27,740 bases of DNA. It comes from an uncultured Candidatus Saccharibacteria bacterium. GTDB taxonomy: Bacteria; Patescibacteriota; Minisyncoccia; Phycocordibacterales; Zambryskibacteraceae. Below are positions 10,274-27,028 of this stretch, one piece after another. Position 1 is the stretch's first letter, and every line of letters begins with the position of its first letter. Both the position numbers and the translations under genes were made by a program. The stretch is taken from contig CAZMSV010000002.1 of the NCBI GenBank assembly GCA_964569075.1, positions 1 to 27,740 on the forward strand, in the 5' to 3' direction. The notes below the pieces were generated by a model. That model ran no database searches and was not told where the DNA came from. It saw nothing but the letters and a program-made list of their open reading frames with translations.

Positions 10274-12034
10274 TTATTCATCAGATGAAACGACTCTCAA
10301 TACCTCCTCGATGGTTGTAATGCCCTGTACTGCCTTGAATACTCCATCTTCAAGCATGGTGAGCATTCCTTCACTTTTTGCCTGCTCTTCTAATTCTTGG
10401 GTGGTCACACCCTTCATAATCAAATCCTTAATTGATGTCGTGACCTTGAGTACTTCATGAATACCAATACGACTTTTATATCCGTCCTCACTGTCAGCGC
10501 TTGGTTTGGCTTTGTACATTGGTATCTTATCCCAAGTAGCGCCCTTTTCTAATATTTTTTCTTCCTTAAGAGTACTCAGGACCCTGTCTAAATTAACAAT
10601 CTTTTCAAGCTGAGCAATTTCCTCTTTTGACAAAAAATATTTTTCTTTTGTATCTGCCAAACGGCGGATAAGTCTCTGGGCAATAATTACTGAAAGAGTG
10701 GAGGTTAAAAGAAATGGCTCAATCTTCATATCTACAAGCCGGGCAATCGTTCCTGCCGCAGAATTAGTATGCAAAGTAGAGAGAACCAAGTGACCAGTAA
10801 GTGAAGCATTAATGGCCAAAGAGGCGGTTTCTGTATCACGAATTTCTCCAACCATTATCACATCTGGGTCCTGCCTAACTAAAGTTCGAAGACCTGTGGC
10901 GAAAGTAAATCCAATTTCTGGCTTCACTTGAGTCTGATTAACTCTTTTCATTTGGTATTCAATCGGATCTTCAATGGTAGATATATTCACGTCCGGAGTA
11001 TTCAAAATATCAAGCATTGTATAAAGGGTTGTGGTCTTTCCAGATCCAGTGGGACCTGTGGTCAAAATCATTCCATCAGAAAGACGCGTCGCTTTGTGAA
11101 GTTTTTCTAATCCTTCTCCATGAAAACCAAGTCCTTCCAGAGTGAAGCCTGAAGCACCCTCTCTTAAAAGTCTCATAACCGTCTTTTCACCATAATATAC
11201 CGGCAAGGTTGAAACACGAAAAGAAACTTTTTCTTCGTTCATCTCAATCTTAAATCTTCCGTCCTGAGGAATACGCTTCTCATCAAGCTTCAAATTTGAG
11301 AGTACTTTAATACGTGCCGTAATGCCACCAGCAACATTTTTTGGTAAAACCATTGCATCATGGAGAATACCGTCAATGCGATATCTCACAACCACTTGAG
11401 TTTCCATTGGTTCTATATGAATATCAGATGCATCCTGAATGATTGCATGCTTCAAAAGCGTGTCAACAATACGAACCACTGGCACATCTTCAGCGAGTTT
11501 TTTTAGATCATCTTCACTAACCTCATCATCTCCGGCCTTATCAACGACCGCCTTAAGTGCCGACGCTTCCTTCTGAATAATATCTCCAAACTCAGCCTTG
11601 AGACTCTTTTGGTAATTCAAAAGGGCGTGCTTCATTGATTCCCCGTCTGTTAAACGAGGAAGAATTTTGAACCCAGTCTTTTTCCTTACAAAATCAATAG
11701 CTGTAAGATCTTCAGTATCAAGCATTGCAACCTCAAGATTGTCATTGGTTTTTCGAAAAGCTACAATGTTGTGATTGCGAGCAATAGGTTCAGGGATTAG
11801 TGACAAAATTTCAAAATCTGTACGCTGCCCCTTAAGGTCGACAAAAGGAATGCCTAGAATATAGGCCTGCATACGACGAAGGTCGTCTTCAGTAATACTT
11901 CCCTTGCTTACCAAGATTCTCCCGACGCTTATTCCTGATTCTTTAGATTCTTTTTCAGCCTTTACAATGTCAGCCTTAGAGACTAGACCAGAATCAAGTA
12001 TAAATTCTTTTAGTTGTGATTCTTCTATGTGCAT
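10274..12034 (-). CDS. pilB: Type IV pilus assembly ATPase (PilB/GspE family)
   Basis: ASDIHIEP, RYRIDG, PQDGRF, Walker A GPTGSGKTTT, RQDPDVIMVGEIRD, LTGHLVLSTLHTN; the CxxC zinc motifs are not present. Confidence 0.96.
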   Translation of the reverse strand: MHIEESQLKEFILDSGLVSKADIVKAEKESKESGISVGRILVSKGSITEDDLRRMQAYILGIPFVDLKGQRTDFEILSLIPEPIARNHNIVAFRKTNDNLEVAMLDTEDLTAIDFVRKKTGFKILPRLTDGESMKHALLNYQKSLKAEFGDIIQKEASALKAVVDKAGDDEVSEDDLKKLAEDVPVVRIVDTLLKHAIIQDASDIHIEPMETQVVVRYRIDGILHDAMVLPKNVAGGITARIKVLSNLKLDEKRIPQDGRFKIEMNEEKVSFRVSTLPVYYGEKTVMRLLREGASGFTLEGLGFHGEGLEKLHKATRLSDGMILTTGPTGSGKTTTLYTMLDILNTPDVNISTIEDPIEYQMKRVNQTQVKPEIGFTFATGLRTLVRQDPDVIMVGEIRDTETASLAINASLTGHLVLSTLHTNSAAGTIARLVDMKIEPFLLTSTLSVIIAQRLIRRLADTKEKYFLSKEEIAQLEKIVNLDRVLSTLKEEKILEKGATWDKIPMYKAKPSADSEDGYKSRIGIHEVLKVTTSIKDLIMKGVTTQELEEQAKSEGMLTMLEDGVFKAVQGITTIEEVLRVVSSDE

Positions 12035-12247
12035 TTTTGTCTACTAACAACATACAACCCACGAGTGTGTTACCAATATAATTGTACCAGATGTAACAGA
12101 AATGTTGTGCACAAACACGCTCAACTGTAACCTAAGTAACCTTTTCTATCTAAATATTCATAAAGTATTCACAAGTCATCTTTTACATAAATGAACCACT
12201 GCAGACTTGGGCCTGGGGTATTATGGTGGAAAATAAGCTCTCTAGAT

Positions 12248-12287
12248 CACCCACAAGTTTTCTACGGTCGTAGAAAACTTGTGGGTG
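12248..12287. repeat. 40-bp palindrome, ACG-GT-CGT core, 10 nt after the PaaX-like stop
   Basis: cacccacaagttttctacg-gt-cgtagaaaacttgtgggtg, perfect arms. Confidence 0.95.
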
Positions 12288-12297
12288 CGTAAAATCT

Positions 12298-12858
12298 CTA
12301 CAAACTGAGACCAAACTCCTTCTTTAATTGCTTTTCGTTTTCTATAGAATCAACAATCAAGTACAAGAGATTTTTCCCAAGTTTCATTTCTGCCTTAAGA
12401 AGAGAGACGAAATCCTCACAGTTATAAGGATATACCCAGACGCTATCTTGAAGCCTAATGAAGCCGACCGCCATTAGCTTGTTTCGTGTTTGGTCTCTGG
12501 TTTTTCTTCTTTTTTCTGATATATCAAATATTAAGACTCTCCACTTTTTATCCCATTTTTTCTTTTTCAAAGATACCGCGCCGTATACAGCCAATTGAAT
12601 CTGACCTTTATTGGTAATGCAAAGAAAGCCACGTTTGTCTGTGGCCAAAAGCCCTTTTTCAAGCAATCTTTTTCTGGCTCGATAAATACGCTCTGACTTT
12701 CTGTTACCCACAATTCCTAAGTTAGCAAAAACTTTCAAAGCATTGGGGGACAGGACAGCAACACCTAAGAGGGCGCCGGTATAAATGGCAGAGAGTATCG
12801 CATATTGCACTTTGCCCTTTTTAATTCGCTTACTTACATTTTTCTCCATTTCTCCCAT
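12298..12858 (-). CDS. PaaX-like regulator: hydrophobic helix, winged HTH and a Cas2-like C-terminal domain
   Basis: WDKKWRVLIFDISEKRRKTRDQTRNKL...GFIRLQDSVWVYPY resembles the PaaX/Cas2 fold; no cas1 or array nearby; start placed at MGEMEK. Confidence 0.85.
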   Translation of the reverse strand: MGEMEKNVSKRIKKGKVQYAILSAIYTGALLGVAVLSPNALKVFANLGIVGNRKSERIYRARKRLLEKGLLATDKRGFLCITNKGQIQLAVYGAVSLKKKKWDKKWRVLIFDISEKRRKTRDQTRNKLMAVGFIRLQDSVWVYPYNCEDFVSLLKAEMKLGKNLLYLIVDSIENEKQLKKEFGLSL

Positions 12859-12900
12859 ACACACATTATATACGACCGTGAGAAATGTGTGTATGGGAGA
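12851..12900 (-). promoter_or_regulatory. Palindrome (ACG-AC-CGT core) containing the -10 box and start codon of the PaaX-like gene
   Basis: Minus strand cggtcgtaTATAATgtgtgtATG; arms homologous to 278-325 and 1414-1459. Confidence 0.75.
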
Positions 12901-12904
12901 ACAC

Positions 12905-13057
12905 AAAGATAAGGATGAGAAAAAGGGATATGAAGATAGAAGTGAGAAAAAGGGGTGAGGAAAAAGGTTGGGGTTGGAAGAGGGGGAAAGATGGAAAAAG
13001 ATAAGGAGTTAGGAAAAGAAGTAGGAAAAGAAGAGGGATTGGGAAGGATGTTAGAGA
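12905..13057 (+). other. 153-nt cytosine-free, purine-rich tract
   Basis: No C on the plus strand between 12904 and 13058; degenerate gagaaaaagg / aggaaaagaag units. Confidence 0.9.
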
Positions 13058-13098
13058 CGAATGAAAGCCTTCTATTCGCACTTGCGTTCGTGGTTCCC

Positions 13099-13142
13099 CA
13101 CAAACAAAAAGACCGAGGCATATCTCGGTCTTTTTGTTTGTG
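13099..13142. terminator. Bidirectional-type intrinsic terminator after the surface protein gene
   Basis: cacaaacaaaaagaccgag-gcatat-ctcggtctttttgtttgtg. Confidence 0.85.
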
Positions 13143-13156
13143 TTCCCTATATCTCT

Positions 13157-16069
13157 CTAGAACTCCTCAAAGATCGGATTGAGAGCAATAACAATTGTAC
13201 CTTGGGCAGACACCACTCCTTCGTTACATGTGACTGTTAGATTAGTAGTCTTTACACCAGTAGTTTGATAACTAATAGAAAACGTGCTTCCGGTTGGAGC
13301 CGGGATAGATGGAATCTCTGTTCCTGACCAAGAGTAGGAACATCCTGTTCCACCACTTAAGACCGGTGTCCAAGTAACCTGCTGGCCTACACCTGCCTTT
13401 GATGGACTAACGGTAAGACTTACGGTCGGAAAAACTGGATCAGAGATAATCAAGTTAAAGTTTGTTGTTTTGTCTACTAATCCAGCAGAGGTACCTGTAA
13501 CTGTAATCGGATATGTCCCCGCCACTGCTGTTGGCTGAACCGTAAAGGTTAGAGTTGTATTGCATGTTGGAGAGCATGTTTTATTGGCATAAACCACTGA
13601 AACATTTGCTGGCATACCCGTAGCCGTAACATCTACTGACTGAGTCGTACCTTGAGTAAGAGTCTTAGTAATTGTGTTTATTAGATTTACAGGAGATGCG
13701 CTTTTTGTAACTGAAGAATTGCCTGAATTAGACAAATTATAGTTGAATGACAATCCTGTCATAGTCACCGTAGCACTAGCAGGGGTCGTACCTCCAAGAC
13801 CCGTACAAGTAAGTGTGAATTGAGTGGTTGCAGTTATGTTTGTAATAGTTTGATTAGCTGAGGTCGGATTACCAACTGACTTGGCTCCCACCCATTGACC
13901 ATTTGCTGGACTAGCTGATGCAGTACAGCCTGTAGCGTTTGTTGATGACCAAGTGAGAGTAGATGAACCGCCACTAGCAACTGATGTTGGACTGGCTGAA
14001 ATATTAACTATTGGAGCAGAAATTGCTGTGTATGTAAGAGTGAAGCTTGCCGTATCACCTGGAACCAAGGTCATACTAGAGCCCGAACCAGTTTTACTGT
14101 TAGTAACAGAAGTAAGGGTATAGCCTCCAGGGGTTGCTGGAGTAATGGTATAAGGCGACCCGCCAGAAGCAGGACTTACACTATGACTTCCCGAAGTCCC
14201 AGAGCCATTTATACCTCCAGTTATAGTCCAGGTGGTAGAAACATTAGAGCTTACATTTATTGTTGCACCAGATGTAACATTGAAAGTAACATTATCAGTC
14301 CCCGCAGTAGTGCTTGGGCCGGTATCACAACTTATACCAAAATTTCTGGTACCAGCCGAACCATACGGACCAAATCCTGATATTGAACCTGAGGAACCAT
14401 AAGTGCCTGTCCACTCTCCGCCCGTAGCAAGACAGCGGGTAGCATTAGTACTTGTCCAAGAAATGTCTGCCGAACTTCCAATGGGCATACTTACCGGACC
14501 ATTAGAATATGAAACGGTACCAGATTGACGACCTTGTATATCTGCAGTTGGAGATGGCGCTGTAACATTCACCACGAAGCTATCAACGGCAGGTCCACCC
14601 GTTCCAGCACAGGAGATTGTGAAGGTGGTATTTGAAGATATTGGACCTAGTGAAAGTTGATTGTATGTTCCATTGCTGAAGGTTTTGGCACCACTCCAGC
14701 CATTTGAAGCTGTACAAGATGTTGCATTTGCTGGAGTCCACTGTAGATCAATGTTACTTCCAGAAGCCACAGATAGTGGGCCGTCACCGTATGAACCAGT
14801 GCTAGCCTGTCTACCCTTGAGGTCGACGGTTACTGGGGGCGCTGTAACATTCACCACGAAGCTATCAACGGCAGGTCCACCCGTTCCAGCACAGGAGATT
14901 GTGAAGGTGGTATTTGAAGATATTGGACCTAGTGAAAGTTGATTGTATGTTCCATTGCTGAAGGTTTTGGCACCACTCCAGCCATTTGAAGCTGTACAAG
15001 ATGTTGCATTTGCTGGAGTCCACTGTAGATCAATGTTACTTCCAGAAGCCACAGATAGTGGGCCGTCACCGTATGAACCAGTGCTAGCCTGTCTACCCTT
15101 GAGGTCGACGGTTACTGAGGGACATACATTAGGTGCCGTTCCGGGGTAAGATACAGACAAAGCTGATGTGCCATCAGAATTTGTGGCTGTGCCGGTATAG
15201 TTGTATGTCTGATTAGCAGTTAATCCTGTGTCTGAATAGGAAGTGCCGGAACCACTGTATATTGGTGAACCGTTTCTAAAAATCTGATAGGAAGTTGCCG
15301 TAGATGAGGACCAAGTGAGATTTATAGTTCCAGTACCACAAGCACCTGGAGTGGTGGTAATTACTGGAGGATTCGGTTGGGCTAGGGGTGGAGGTGGGGG
15401 TGGGGGATTAGCTTGATAATTAATTGTAAAAGAATAGCTTGTTGTATCATATTGAGTAGTGAAGCAGGAACTATTCTGACCAGTGACTGAATTATCTATC
15501 CTTAATAGGGTGTAACTATTCGGAACACTTGTTGATGTCAGGCAATACTGTACCCCAGAAGAAGTGGGGATTTGATTTGAATTTGCGGTAAGCCCACCTG
15601 TTATAGACCAAGTACCACCTGTTACAGGAGTTTCATTCACAGTAATGGTGGAACAAGTATAGATATCGGGTGATGATTGATTAAAAAAAATAAATTCGGT
15701 AGCCAACGGCGCTGGGCCGTTACCATTATAATCAATTCTATAAGTATAATTACCACTAAATAACTTCGAATCTGTAAAAATAGTATCTTTACCCTGATAA
15801 GTTCCTAAAGATACCCTTGGTCCTAAGTCATGAGATCGCCAAACTTCAAACCAAGCATTGCTACCATCTGCATTTATTGGGTGGGATACAGGAAAAATAA
15901 CTTTGATATTCGCATCATTCAAAAATAAGTTCCAACTATTACAGTTAATTCGGCCAAATAAGATCTCACCGTTTGGATTACCCTCTTGACCTTGGACAAA
16001 GTTTGGCAATACAAACATCACAAACAATAGGAGACTCGTTATTAATCCGGATTTGGTTTTATTTTTCAT
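13157..16069 (-). CDS. Large secreted Ser/Thr/Gly-rich surface protein with FN3/Ig/PKD-like repeats
   Basis: Signal peptide, poly-Pro linker, FN3-like INLTWSSS..SYQIFRNG..YSDTGL, repeated LxWtstnatsCtAsxxW modules. Confidence 0.85.
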   Translation of the reverse strand: MKNKTKSGLITSLLLFVMFVLPNFVQGQEGNPNGEILFGRINCNSWNLFLNDANIKVIFPVSHPINADGSNAWFEVWRSHDLGPRVSLGTYQGKDTIFTDSKLFSGNYTYRIDYNGNGPAPLATEFIFFNQSSPDIYTCSTITVNETPVTGGTWSITGGLTANSNQIPTSSGVQYCLTSTSVPNSYTLLRIDNSVTGQNSSCFTTQYDTTSYSFTINYQANPPPPPPPLAQPNPPVITTTPGACGTGTINLTWSSSTATSYQIFRNGSPIYSGSGTSYSDTGLTANQTYNYTGTATNSDGTSALSVSYPGTAPNVCPSVTVDLKGRQASTGSYGDGPLSVASGSNIDLQWTPANATSCTASNGWSGAKTFSNGTYNQLSLGPISSNTTFTISCAGTGGPAVDSFVVNVTAPPVTVDLKGRQASTGSYGDGPLSVASGSNIDLQWTPANATSCTASNGWSGAKTFSNGTYNQLSLGPISSNTTFTISCAGTGGPAVDSFVVNVTAPSPTADIQGRQSGTVSYSNGPVSMPIGSSADISWTSTNATRCLATGGEWTGTYGSSGSISGFGPYGSAGTRNFGISCDTGPSTTAGTDNVTFNVTSGATINVSSNVSTTWTITGGINGSGTSGSHSVSPASGGSPYTITPATPGGYTLTSVTNSKTGSGSSMTLVPGDTASFTLTYTAISAPIVNISASPTSVASGGSSTLTWSSTNATGCTASASPANGQWVGAKSVGNPTSANQTITNITATTQFTLTCTGLGGTTPASATVTMTGLSFNYNLSNSGNSSVTKSASPVNLINTITKTLTQGTTQSVDVTATGMPANVSVVYANKTCSPTCNTTLTFTVQPTAVAGTYPITVTGTSAGLVDKTTNFNLIISDPVFPTVSLTVSPSKAGVGQQVTWTPVLSGGTGCSYSWSGTEIPSIPAPTGSTFSISYQTTGVKTTNLTVTCNEGVVSAQGTIVIALNPIFEEF
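14556..15117. repeat. Exact tandem duplication, period 282 bp (94 aa)
   Basis: 14556-14835 is identical to 14838-15117 by direct comparison. Confidence 0.95.
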
Positions 16070-25530: not shown

Positions 25531-26703
25531 TTACAGTTTTGAGTTGTTAGTTTTAAGTAAATACAGTAAATACTCTGCCAAACAAACGAAACTGTCGTTA
25601 GCCCAGACGCTTTGGTCGGGACTTGCAGCTTTTAGCTTTGGCTCTAGCTTAATACCTTGTGAAACTCTTTGCAATTTTATTCGAAGTTTATAACTGTTCC
25701 CATGAGAGAGTAACCCTAGATAAGAGGCTGTGCTTTCTGGTGTGTAATGCTTTCTAACATTTCGGAACATCCTTCTTTTTGTCGCAGTACGCAAAATCCT
25801 GTGCTTAGGAAAATGTACCCAACCTAGAAAATCAATTCCAGACGAAAATGTTTTTATAAAAACCTTGTCTGGATGCAAAGCCAGTTTAAGATTTTGTACA
25901 AGAAAGTCTGATACTTGCGAAAGAAGCGCCTCTAAATCCTTTTTATTGTGCGAAAGAAAAACAAAGTCGTCAGCGTAGCGAATATAGTATTTAACCTTAA
26001 GCTCATGTTTCACATATCGATCAAACTCATTCATATAAATATTAACCAGAAGTTGTGAAGTAGGGTTGCCTAATGGTAAGCCCTCAGAACATTCCAATAT
26101 TCTTGAGAATGTTGGAATGTTTGATGATGATTTAAAACTATCTATTACTTGTTCCAGAAGCCACAGATTCTGCTTATCCTTGTCGACGCTCCACACGCGG
26201 TTGTCAGCGCTCCAGTACACAAAGACGACACATGAGCTGGTGTAGAACAGGTTGGCATGGCCGTTATTCAACAGCGTGCCCTCCTTTCCACCCTCCTGCT
26301 TTGAGATGAGATCTGCGATGATGGCACAGAGCACGCCTTCATCAAAGAGATGCCCATCTGGCAGGGAGCTTTCGATCCCGACGTCGCTCATATCCCTCTT
26401 GAGCTCGAAGCTCCGGGCGCTGAACTCGGCACCAGCCGGAGTTGGCTTCGCCTTCGCGACCACCTGACTGCGGTAGCCACCCCAAACCCAGAGACCTTCC
26501 CGGTTCTCGTAGAACGAGTCGGGGTTGTGGGGCTCGGCGAGCTTCACATACACGAGACCGCGCGGTGCGAGGAGCATCTCCGCCTCCACATACTTGCGCA
26601 CGACCTCAACCAACTCGTCACCGCGCGGTGCGAGGAGCATCCCCGCCTCCACATACTTGCGCACGACCTCAACCAACTCGTCTGGCGTCATGGTGTTGGC
26701 CAT
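25531..26703 (-). CDS. Chimeric ORF: DGR target (variable) protein N-part fused in frame to the C-terminal half of a DGR reverse transcriptase
   Basis: aa ~174 onward: GLPLGNPTSQ, YIRYADDF, LHPDK, GIDFLGW; aa 1-173: GTLLNNGHANLFY..CVVFVYWSADNRVWSVD, resembling CPR DGR targets. Confidence 0.85.
   Translation of the reverse strand: MANTMTPDELVEVVRKYVEAGMLLAPRGDELVEVVRKYVEAEMLLAPRGLVYVKLAEPHNPDSFYENREGLWVWGGYRSQVVAKAKPTPAGAEFSARSFELKRDMSDVGIESSLPDGHLFDEGVLCAIIADLISKQEGGKEGTLLNNGHANLFYTSSCVVFVYWSADNRVWSVDKDKQNLWLLEQVIDSFKSSSNIPTFSRILECSEGLPLGNPTSQLLVNIYMNEFDRYVKHELKVKYYIRYADDFVFLSHNKKDLEALLSQVSDFLVQNLKLALHPDKVFIKTFSSGIDFLGWVHFPKHRILRTATKRRMFRNVRKHYTPESTASYLGLLSHGNSYKLRIKLQRVSQGIKLEPKLKAASPDQSVWANDSFVCLAEYLLYLLKTNNSKL
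26182..26226 (-). repeat. Truncated DGR variable repeat (VR)-like segment
   Basis: GTC TTT GTG TAC TGG AGC GCT GAC AAC CGC GTG TGG AGC GTC GAC; alternating NNY codons derivable from AAY by changes at adenines only. Confidence 0.65.
26557..26682. repeat. 63-bp tandem duplication (21 aa)
   Basis: 26557-26619 vs 26620-26682, one mismatch (26579 T / 26642 C). Confidence 0.95.
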
Positions 26704-26711
26704 GGGGTCAT

Positions 26712-26811
26712 CTCCTTATTTTTGAAACGAACATTCCCAGAACGCTGGGTCGTCGGTAGGAAATCCACCACTTCTACCCTTAATTATACCATACTTGATT
26801 TAAAAATGCAA
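26712..26811 (-). promoter_or_regulatory. Promoter and SD of the target::RT ORF
   Basis: TTGCAT (26811-26806), 17 nt, TATAAT (26788-26783) preceded by TGg; AAGGAG 8 nt before the ATG. Confidence 0.8.
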
Positions 26812-26872
26812 GGATTTGACCCCAAAATCTATATTTTTAGGGTTTTTAGCACTAGCACATATTAACTCTACC

Positions 26873-26916
26873 CACCCTCCAACTTCTCGACCTATAGGTC
26901 GAGAAGTTGGATGGTG
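26873..26916. repeat. Palindrome with CCTATAGG core upstream of the DGR remnant
   Basis: Perfect 34 bp tccaacttctcga-cctatagg-tcgagaagttgga; left flank catattaactctacccaccctccaac matches 186-211. Confidence 0.93.
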
Positions 26917-27028
26917 TATATTGTCCTTTATTCATCATTCCTTCTTCGTTATTCCTTCTGCATCCCCTAACTTGAAAAGTGGGGTGAATCATGTAATATT
27001 GCACTACTTAAAACTAACAATTACCTAT

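Follow-up and report, generated by a model that had tools for sequence, protein, structure and literature searches.

A winged-helix–Cas2-fold gene between two palindromes matches the layout of REP/RAYT units in the same bacterial genomes

Introduction

Repetitive extragenic palindromic (REP) elements and the REP-associated tyrosine transposase (RAYT) gene that accompanies them have been described as REPtrons, REPINs and BIMEs (Nunvar 2010; Bertels and Rainey 2011, PMC3116915, PMC3337134). Here we analyze a small gene, encoding a protein with a winged helix and a Cas2-type fold (a "mini-PaaX"), that lies between two palindromes in a 27,740-nt stretch of DNA (the window) from an uncultured Candidatus Saccharibacteria bacterium, one of the ultra-small Patescibacteria/CPR, whose 626-kb genome, called G000 below, is 93% complete. 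The locus is like REP/RAYT in that a single small gene lies between copies of a palindrome of a genome-specific family that is dispersed or arrayed in intergenic DNA, and the RAYT genes of these same genomes have the identical layout, with palindrome, extended -10 box, 7-9 nt and ATG in order and, past the gene, a palindrome again. It is unlike REP/RAYT in that the protein is a winged helix plus Cas2 fold and not an HUH/Y1 transposase, the palindromes number tens of copies rather than hundreds, and no GTAG or CGTC tag is common to the copies; and whereas RAYTs are described as mostly vertical single copies, this unit has been gained or lost among close relatives and occupies different sites.

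Two protein families provide the other comparisons. PaaX is a phenylacetyl-CoA-responsive repressor that binds inverted repeats overlapping promoters. The window protein resembles PaaX (PDB 8a39, 3kfw and 3l09) in having a winged helix followed by a Cas2-like middle domain with a WDxxW motif; however, PaaX has ~300 residues including a PaaX_C domain, while the window protein has 186 residues and no PaaX_C, keeps the Cas2-type FDI aspartate, and is associated with 36-52 bp perfect palindromes that are both bracketing and dispersed. There are no paa genes near the window gene, its neighbours being pilB and a surface protein gene, and its homologues lie at unrelated sites. With Cas2 (TIGR01573, PF09827) it shares the ferredoxin-like fold and invariant FDI and Q-x-SV motifs, but unlike Cas2 it carries a fused N-terminal winged helix, its match is confined to residues 107-148, and cas1 was not found. 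Among the papers searched, we found none that links PaaX/Cas2-like proteins from Candidate Phyla Radiation (CPR) bacteria with bracketing or dispersed palindromes.

Results

The gene and its two palindromes

The features of the gene and its immediate surroundings are as follows (window coordinates):

12298-12858, minus strand: gene of 186 codons, PaaX-type winged helix (residues ~38-95) plus Cas2-fold domain (residues ~100-186)
12248-12287, no strand: downstream palindrome, 19+2+19 nt with perfect arms, centre ACGGTCGT, 10 nt past the stop
12850-12901, no strand: upstream palindrome, 52 nt with 18-nt perfect arms and a 16-nt centre that holds ACGACCGT
12865-12893, minus strand: promoter-like site, TACACA (12893-12888), 17-nt spacer and TATAAT (12870-12865), matching 10/12 consensus positions

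The stop codon occupies 12298-12300 (read on the minus strand) and the ATG 12858-12856; we take 12858 as the true start because the N-terminal MGxxE is nearly invariant among 49 aligned homologues. An earlier note on this DNA had described a perfect 40-bp palindrome 10 nt past the stop and a 50-bp palindrome over the start, with a shared core in opposite orientations. All of this was borne out: the arms of the first are 100% complementary, the second is 52 nt long, and both hold the central 8-mer ACGGTCGT, on the plus strand in the first (12264-12271) and on the minus strand in the second (12872-12879). The window contains 4 copies of this 8-mer where 0.25 would be expected, a count reached in 0/100 shuffles. 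The downstream palindrome has arms unlike those of any other copy in the genome and a centre that is common to others; the letters after it on the gene strand, ATCTAGAG, contain no U-tract or T-run, and it is thus not a typical terminator, as the earlier note had also held.

The upstream palindrome, which overlaps -10 box, predicted transcription start and ATG alike, is the probable operator. An overlap of 1-9 nt between palindrome and ATG is found at 11 of the 34 homologue loci (below) that have an upstream palindrome. In a consensus scan the TACACA-17-TATAAT site is the sole sigma-70-like match within 12000-13250. Its TATAAT is separated from the ATG by 6 nt, and the nearest homologues likewise carry TATAAT-N6-ATG. 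The position of this promoter predicts that the mRNA is probably leaderless, and a leaderless start fits because both the TATAAT-N6-8-ATG layout and the N-terminus are conserved.

Is such an arrangement peculiar to this gene? In a crude gene map of G000 (596 calls) a non-terminator palindrome lies no more than 100 nt upstream of 22 genes and no more than 150 nt downstream of 41, and the window gene is the only one with such palindromes on both sides.

Two paralogues and two palindrome classes in one genome

G000 contains exactly two members of the family, the window gene and a paralogue on contig C1. The earlier note had called the gene "solo", which is correct in the CRISPR sense (cas1 was not found) and incorrect in that this second paralogue exists. 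At the C1 gene a CCTATAGG-centred palindrome is followed directly by GGTATAAT, with the ATG 8 nt later, and a degenerate copy of the same class lies after the gene. Thus the two paralogues go with two centre classes: the window gene lies within ACGRYCGT palindromes and the C1 gene within CCTATAGG palindromes. Solo copies of both classes are present in the window itself:

278-325, no strand: solo sibling palindrome, 23+2+23 nt, perfect, centre ACGACCGT, CCCATACAC-type arms
1414-1459, no strand: solo sibling palindrome, centre CGGTCGTG, CCCATACAC-type arms
204-241, no strand: solo palindrome of the CCTATAGG class, the class that brackets the C1 paralogue
1339-1378, no strand: solo CCTATAGG-class palindrome that forms an array with the 1414-1459 copy, at a distance of 36 nt
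26873-26916, no strand: solo CCTATAGG-class palindrome on the edge of a reverse-transcriptase insertion that is specific to this genome

The siblings at 278-325 and 1414-1459 read catttctcacg and cattcctcgcg, respectively, where the start-proximal copy reads cattatatacg; they are symmetric and have no TATAAT at the position where the start-proximal copy has it. Coordinates and sibling comparison agree with the earlier claim that the TATAAT 6 nt before the ATG arises exactly where the upstream copy departs from its siblings.

Genome-wide there are 13 ACGRYCGT-centred and 10 CCTATAGG-centred copies, and 23/23 are intergenic. They occur in both orientations, and for most of them the nearest start is >85 nt away. 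Convergent stops enclose six, several are in arrays that mix the classes (up to five different palindromes), and a few solo copies are upstream of gene starts, at 48-110 nt. The sequences of the arms vary and their complementarity does not: 95% and 94% of arm positions in the two classes form Watson-Crick pairs, with 2-4 pair types per position, compared with ~61% and 49% after reshuffling, and in the inner 14 arm positions only 1 of 168 cells is unpaired. The genome has 112 palindromes with perfect arms of at least 14 nt, and it also has ordinary T-run terminators, which are distinct from the class palindromes.

A third paralogue that would match the commonest solo subfamily was not found in G000. 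A gene following a palindrome of that subfamily at two contig starts was considered and rejected, the ATG there opening just 28-32 codons. Four copies of one solo subfamily (C17:2448-2499, C35:163-206, C10:8928-8963 and C37:2385-2422) have a 34-nt core in common, beyond which the symmetry extends for 1-9 further bp that are different in each copy. This extended symmetry suggests either that the copies entered dyads already present or that the flank was copied by fold-back. The C17 and C10 copies each have a flank on one side without counterpart in the same-genus genomes, so that the inserted DNA is not definable there.

Both units are insertions relative to sister genomes

The surroundings of the window gene were compared with four genomes of the same genus (G001-G004). 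The relevant features are:

12118-13098, minus strand: inserted unit of 981 bp, consisting of pyrimidine-rich leader, promoter palindrome, gene, palindrome and 130-nt tail
12110-12117, no strand: first copy of the 8-bp direct repeat CACAAACA, at the insertion boundary
13099-13106, no strand: second copy of CACAAACA, which is also the opening 8 nt of the host terminator
13099-13142, minus strand: intrinsic terminator of the 970-amino-acid surface-protein gene (G+C stem and T-run), belonging to the host and not to the unit
12905-13057, minus strand: tract of 153 nt that lacks C on the plus strand, hence 0% G when read along the gene, in the unit upstream of the promoter palindrome

Empty sites, which the earlier note had proposed to look for, were found for both paralogues. 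The 981-bp unit is missing from 4/4 of the same-genus genomes, in which ~100 nt separate the pilB orthologue (87-91% amino-acid identity) from the surface-protein gene's terminator, and counterparts of the 13099-13142 terminator are present at these empty sites. The C1 unit of ~900 bp is inserted at the rsmA start codon and bounded by the 6-bp repeat TGAAAT; it is missing from three of the same-genus genomes, and the fourth, G001, has a RAYT at that rsmA site. Both units are therefore 0.9-1.0 kb insertions relative to sister genomes. The CACAAACA repeat may be a target duplication or microhomology, its significance being uncertain; a target duplication of fixed length is disfavoured because the repeats at the two boundaries differ (8 versus 6 bp). 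Neither terminal inverted repeats nor ends common to the two units were seen by eye. Sequencing runs that contain the region of the window gene are DNA runs from microbial mats only; contigs from four runs represent the same strain and contain the 981-bp unit, and the empty-site variant was not seen among them.

The G001 rsmA site reads as follows: Y1 transposase (RAYT) gene, with palindrome, GGTATAAT, 9 nt and ATG at its start and a palindrome at its end. The two RAYT genes of G000 itself (on C5 and C33) have this layout as well, with palindromes that are distinct and belong to them, and so do ten RAYT loci of relatives that served as positive control. Since the layouts match and the rsmA site is common to both, the mini-PaaX units share architecture and insertion sites with RAYT genes. 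At two RAYT loci additional copies lie within the gene: the G001 RAYT (L034:567-1344) has a third palindrome copy in frame inside its reading frame, and the C33 RAYT of G000 (C33:3740-4500) has a CCAAGTTTCCAAGT-type palindrome upstream, downstream and twice inside an intact open reading frame.

The leader of the C1 unit is 5% G. A C-free leader was considered as a trait of the family and rejected: the median G content of the leaders at 80 family loci is 19%, and the feature is particular to this genome. Two further tracts of at least 90 nt that lack one base occur in G000 at C27:4025-4165 and C37:33-122 (range with the window tract, 90-153 nt), and pyrimidine-rich stretches are also found in intergenic DNA of a sister genome.

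The protein

The earlier assignment of the protein to a PaaX/Cas2 fold is right. Pfam PaaX_M (PF20803) matches residues 100-175 (7.6e-20; 71 bits, cut-off 24), Pfam Cas2 (PF09827) scores 19.6 bits, which is under its cut-off, and the NCBIfam cas2 model TIGR01573 gives 26.1 bits against a cut-off of 24.5. The public name "Cas2" is explained by this last score, which narrowly exceeds its cut-off. The full-length PaaX model TIGR02277 reaches 36.3 bits where its cut-off is 264.55; there was no Pfam match to PaaX_C, the protein terminating at residue 186, and none to Y1_Tnp. Of the names that databases give this family, Cas2 and PaaX, neither fits. An AlphaFold2 model has a pLDDT (predicted local distance difference test) above 90 over residues 100-186, with the order beta-alpha-beta-beta-alpha-beta of a ferredoxin-like fold, and a less confident N-terminal winged helix. 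The top Foldseek match is Escherichia coli PaaX (8a39), followed by many Cas2 chains (target-normalised TM-score ~0.6); VapD (3ui3) and a Sulfolobus RNase (3exc) are also among the matches. A full-length two-copy homodimer prediction scored 0.01, which is evidence for neither side.

The Cas2 signatures FDI and Q-x-SVW are kept in 49/49 aligned sequences, F111-D112-I113 being invariant or nearly so. PaaX is the best sequence match among solved structures, and two PaaX-like matching chains do not have the FDI aspartate. By its position in the profile, rather than by a residue-level superposition, we take D112 to be the equivalent of the Cas2 catalytic site. A nuclease role of the Cas2-fold domain is made possible by this invariant Cas2-type aspartate, a residue missing from PaaX. 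No Cas1 (PF01867) match was found in the 93%-complete genome.

Residues ~19-37, after a basic stretch, form a hydrophobic segment that exceeds the Kyte-Doolittle membrane threshold in 49/49 family members (1.79 in the window protein, family median 2.08) and has low confidence in the structure model. It could either be a membrane helix or form the first, buried helix of the winged-helix domain.

Homologues and palindromes in related genomes

Homologues are present in 16/41 related genomes and RAYT in 26/41. In the four same-genus genomes there is no homologue (0/4), and the two main ACGRYCGT subfamilies were not found there either; this absence is specific, since G004, one of the four, does share an unrelated palindrome family with G000. 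The pilB and surface-protein neighbours of the window gene are at none of the homologue loci, and the two nearest homologues (57% identity) lie antisense between fusA and tuf. In three relatives the palindrome that brackets the homologue is present in additional copies: 10 in G017, 5 in G005 and 3 in G021, with none in the other 40 genomes, and variant copies in these three genomes are altered on both arms. Y1 transposase was not found in G005 or G021, so that among the genomes searched dispersal does not need a RAYT. The palindrome sequence is thus specific to each genome, which has further solo copies in its intergenic DNA, either scattered or arrayed.

The family is very large: it forms no fewer than 1197 clusters at 90% identity, and species-representative genomes yield at least 587 matches. 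Loci of 80 species-level homologues were compared with 256 neighbouring genes of the same loci:

Upstream palindrome: homologues 34/80, neighbouring genes 11/256
Downstream palindrome: homologues 37/77, neighbouring genes 16/256
Palindromes on both sides: homologues 26/77 (34%), neighbouring genes 2/256 (0.8%), Fisher 2e-16

The earlier note had proposed a test for enrichment of the palindromes beside paralogues, and across Paceibacteria the enrichment beside homologues is strong. The gene-between-palindromes layout is thus recurrent in the family, and it matches the RAYT layout in the same genomes. The two palindromes of a bracketing pair are of one family in 22/27 cases, and the family as a whole has two centre classes, N-CTATAG-N and N-CG-RY-CG-N. 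At many loci the right arm contains TATAAT, six nt and ATG, and the common outer arm (CCCATACA / TGTATGGG) is for this reason partly start codon and conserved glycine codon. The asymmetric central dinucleotide is inverted between the two brackets here and in 3/3 informative relatives; in the 80-species set it is inverted in 5 cases and the same in 3. A rule was sought for how the asymmetric centre is oriented, whether with respect to the gene or from one copy to the other, and no consistent one emerged.

Residue 138 follows the centre class

The alignment column that is best related to centre class is residue 138 (mutual information 0.74 bit), which lies between the invariant Q137 and S139 in a beta-hairpin of the Cas2 fold. 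It is D in 28/28 proteins whose palindromes have CTATAG centres and N, K, H or Q in 23/26 proteins with CG-RY-CG centres, so that overall it follows the centre class in 51/54. On the best tree, in which 6/50 branches are supported, the residue and the centre class each change about ten times.

Discussion

A self-bracketed unit with a probably autorepressed gene

The reading that we consider probable, with room for the alternatives weighed below, is that the window gene and its brackets form a self-bracketed mini-PaaX unit with an autorepressed leaderless gene, whose palindromes spread in the manner of REP elements. Transcription would begin at a promoter built into the upstream palindrome and give a leaderless mRNA. 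The protein would bind the palindrome as a symmetric dimer, or would bind a hairpin or cruciform form of it, so that the Cas2-fold beta-hairpin, which carries residue 138, would lie near the palindrome centre and the winged helices would sit on the outer arms. When bound at the upstream copy, the protein would cover the -10 box and the start and so repress itself; autorepression at a leaderless promoter is the most likely local function. The solo copies would descend, in REP-like fashion, from the bracketing palindromes. The comparisons above support both the partnership of protein and palindrome and the gain of the whole unit as one block.

If the protein does read its own palindromes, the co-evolution of protein and DNA could be studied in a compact model that has a candidate specificity residue, much of the repeat content and many assembly breaks in the genomes of ultra-small bacteria would be explained, and a gene-plus-palindrome partnership of the REP/RAYT type would have arisen with an unrelated fold. 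Mini-PaaX units and true RAYT units occur side by side, even at one site, and so permit a direct comparison within a genome.

Several observations weigh against this reading. Palindromes of the two classes are not exclusive to the family, since genome-specific sigma-70-like and reverse-transcriptase genes adjoin them too. About 40% of homologue loci have no palindrome at the threshold used, including 4/4 copies in G022 and 2/2 in G031. The window protein, one of the three exceptions to the residue rule, has Q-D-S and lies between CG-type centres. The same holds for its near relative P0003, and the palindromes at P0005 (Q-N-S) closely resemble those of the window gene; for these reasons residue 138 is not the sole determinant. 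The tree is poorly resolved and provides just 3 supported independent pairs, which makes the test underpowered, and shared ancestry may explain part of the link. Finally, if the hydrophobic N-terminal segment spans a membrane, the topology of a DNA-binding protein there calls for explanation. The earlier description of a protein "paired with its own dispersed target palindromes" is partly supported; one point against a simple form of it is that the residue rule, in which Q-D-S goes with CTATAG, expects the other class.

A bolder version, which we regard as rather unlikely, makes the Cas2-fold domain the catalytic part of a second, HUH-independent mobile repeat system that recognises hairpins. 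The protein would then nick or join its own palindromes when these are extruded as hairpins, disperse them, and carry its 1-kb unit from one intergenic site to another. If this were true, a very large CPR family would be a free-living relative of the DNA-handling role that Cas2 has in CRISPR adaptation.

Other explanations

The self-bracketed unit must be weighed against four other explanations. The one that survives best, although it is unlikely, is that the protein is an ordinary transcription factor with a regulon and that the palindromes are operators of its own gene and of others; the earlier note had named a regulon and a REP/RAYT-like element as its two possibilities. PaaX-family proteins are established as repressors that bind inverted repeats and 8a39 is the top fold match, the upstream copy lies over the -10 box and start, and a few of the solo copies precede gene starts by 48-110 nt. 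A REP-like element fits better, and a plain regulon is unlikely, because all 23 copies are intergenic and most are >85 nt from starts, with six between convergent stops and several in mixed arrays. Perfect palindromes of 36-52 bp whose arms vary and remain complementary are, moreover, not expected of operators, and the sequences are genome-specific, with full turnover between genera, while the unit itself changes sites.

Could the gene instead be a passenger unconnected with the palindromes, and these be REPs moved by RAYT or generic structural repeats that accumulate around any recently inserted DNA? This we also think improbable. In its favour are the two RAYT genes in G000, the frequency of RAYT among the relatives, the RAYT unit at the same site in G001, and the genome-specific sigma-like and reverse-transcriptase genes that border class palindromes. 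The RAYTs of G000 have palindromes of their own that are different, however, and G005 and G021 have the dispersed bracketing palindrome where Y1 transposase was not found; in addition, bracketing is ~40 times commoner in the family than in neighbouring genes, and one residue of the protein tracks the centre class.

Certain Cas2 and VapD proteins can cut RNA in vitro. A system that acts on RNA, in which mRNA hairpins that serve stability or termination would be recognised by a Cas2/VapD-like ribonuclease, possibly toxin-like, appears very doubtful to us, even though VapD 3ui3 and RNase 3exc are among the fold matches and the downstream copy, 10 nt past the stop, lies where a 3' hairpin would form. 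RNA stems usually tolerate G-U pairs, but these arms are nearly pure Watson-Crick (1/168 unpaired); the copies occur in both orientations, some of them in arrays or between convergent genes; the upstream copy lies largely ahead of the predicted start and hence outside the mRNA; and the 981-bp unit contains no antitoxin-like partner gene. Chance juxtaposition of unrelated hairpins and a small gene, for which the 112 perfect-armed palindromes of this palindrome-rich genome might be cited, is refuted by the counts (1/596 genes bracketed, 8-mer 4 versus 0.25, Fisher 2e-16 family-wide) and has practically no probability.

Neighbouring genes and other palindrome families

In the window there was no Rfam match, a tRNA search gave nothing, and no CRISPR-type repeat array was among the repeats, for which inverted repeats alone were searched. 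Two further palindrome families were noted in the genome. A AACATTCCAACATTCT-type family has 5 copies in G000 (window 26088-26121 and one each on C11, C31, C41 and C49) and at least five in the same-genus genome G004; its presence in both G000 and G004 makes it older than, and independent of, the ACGRYCGT family. A family consisting of ATTTGAATACGCCA, a short loop and the complement has ~11 copies in G000 (C3, C6, C16, C20, C28, C32, C34 and others), is often paired at a distance of 20-50 nt with a CCACTTGGACGT-type palindrome, and has no identified associated gene.

Three other genes of the window deserve mention. That at 395-1228 encodes a 277-amino-acid protein with a sigma-70 region 4; it has no counterpart beside the recJ-like gene in the same-genus genomes and is flanked by mixed palindrome arrays (150-325 and 1339-1459). 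The 970-amino-acid secreted or surface protein is encoded at 13157-16069 and has an internal duplication of ~90 residues in near-identical copies; its C-terminal end and the terminator are conserved in the same-genus genomes. The reverse transcriptase at 25531-26966 (RVT_1, 3.9e-14), whose best matches in a defence library are reverse transcriptases of the DRT/UG type, is a genome-specific insertion between an rsmE-like gene and clpP, and contains an N-terminal tandem duplication of 21 residues.

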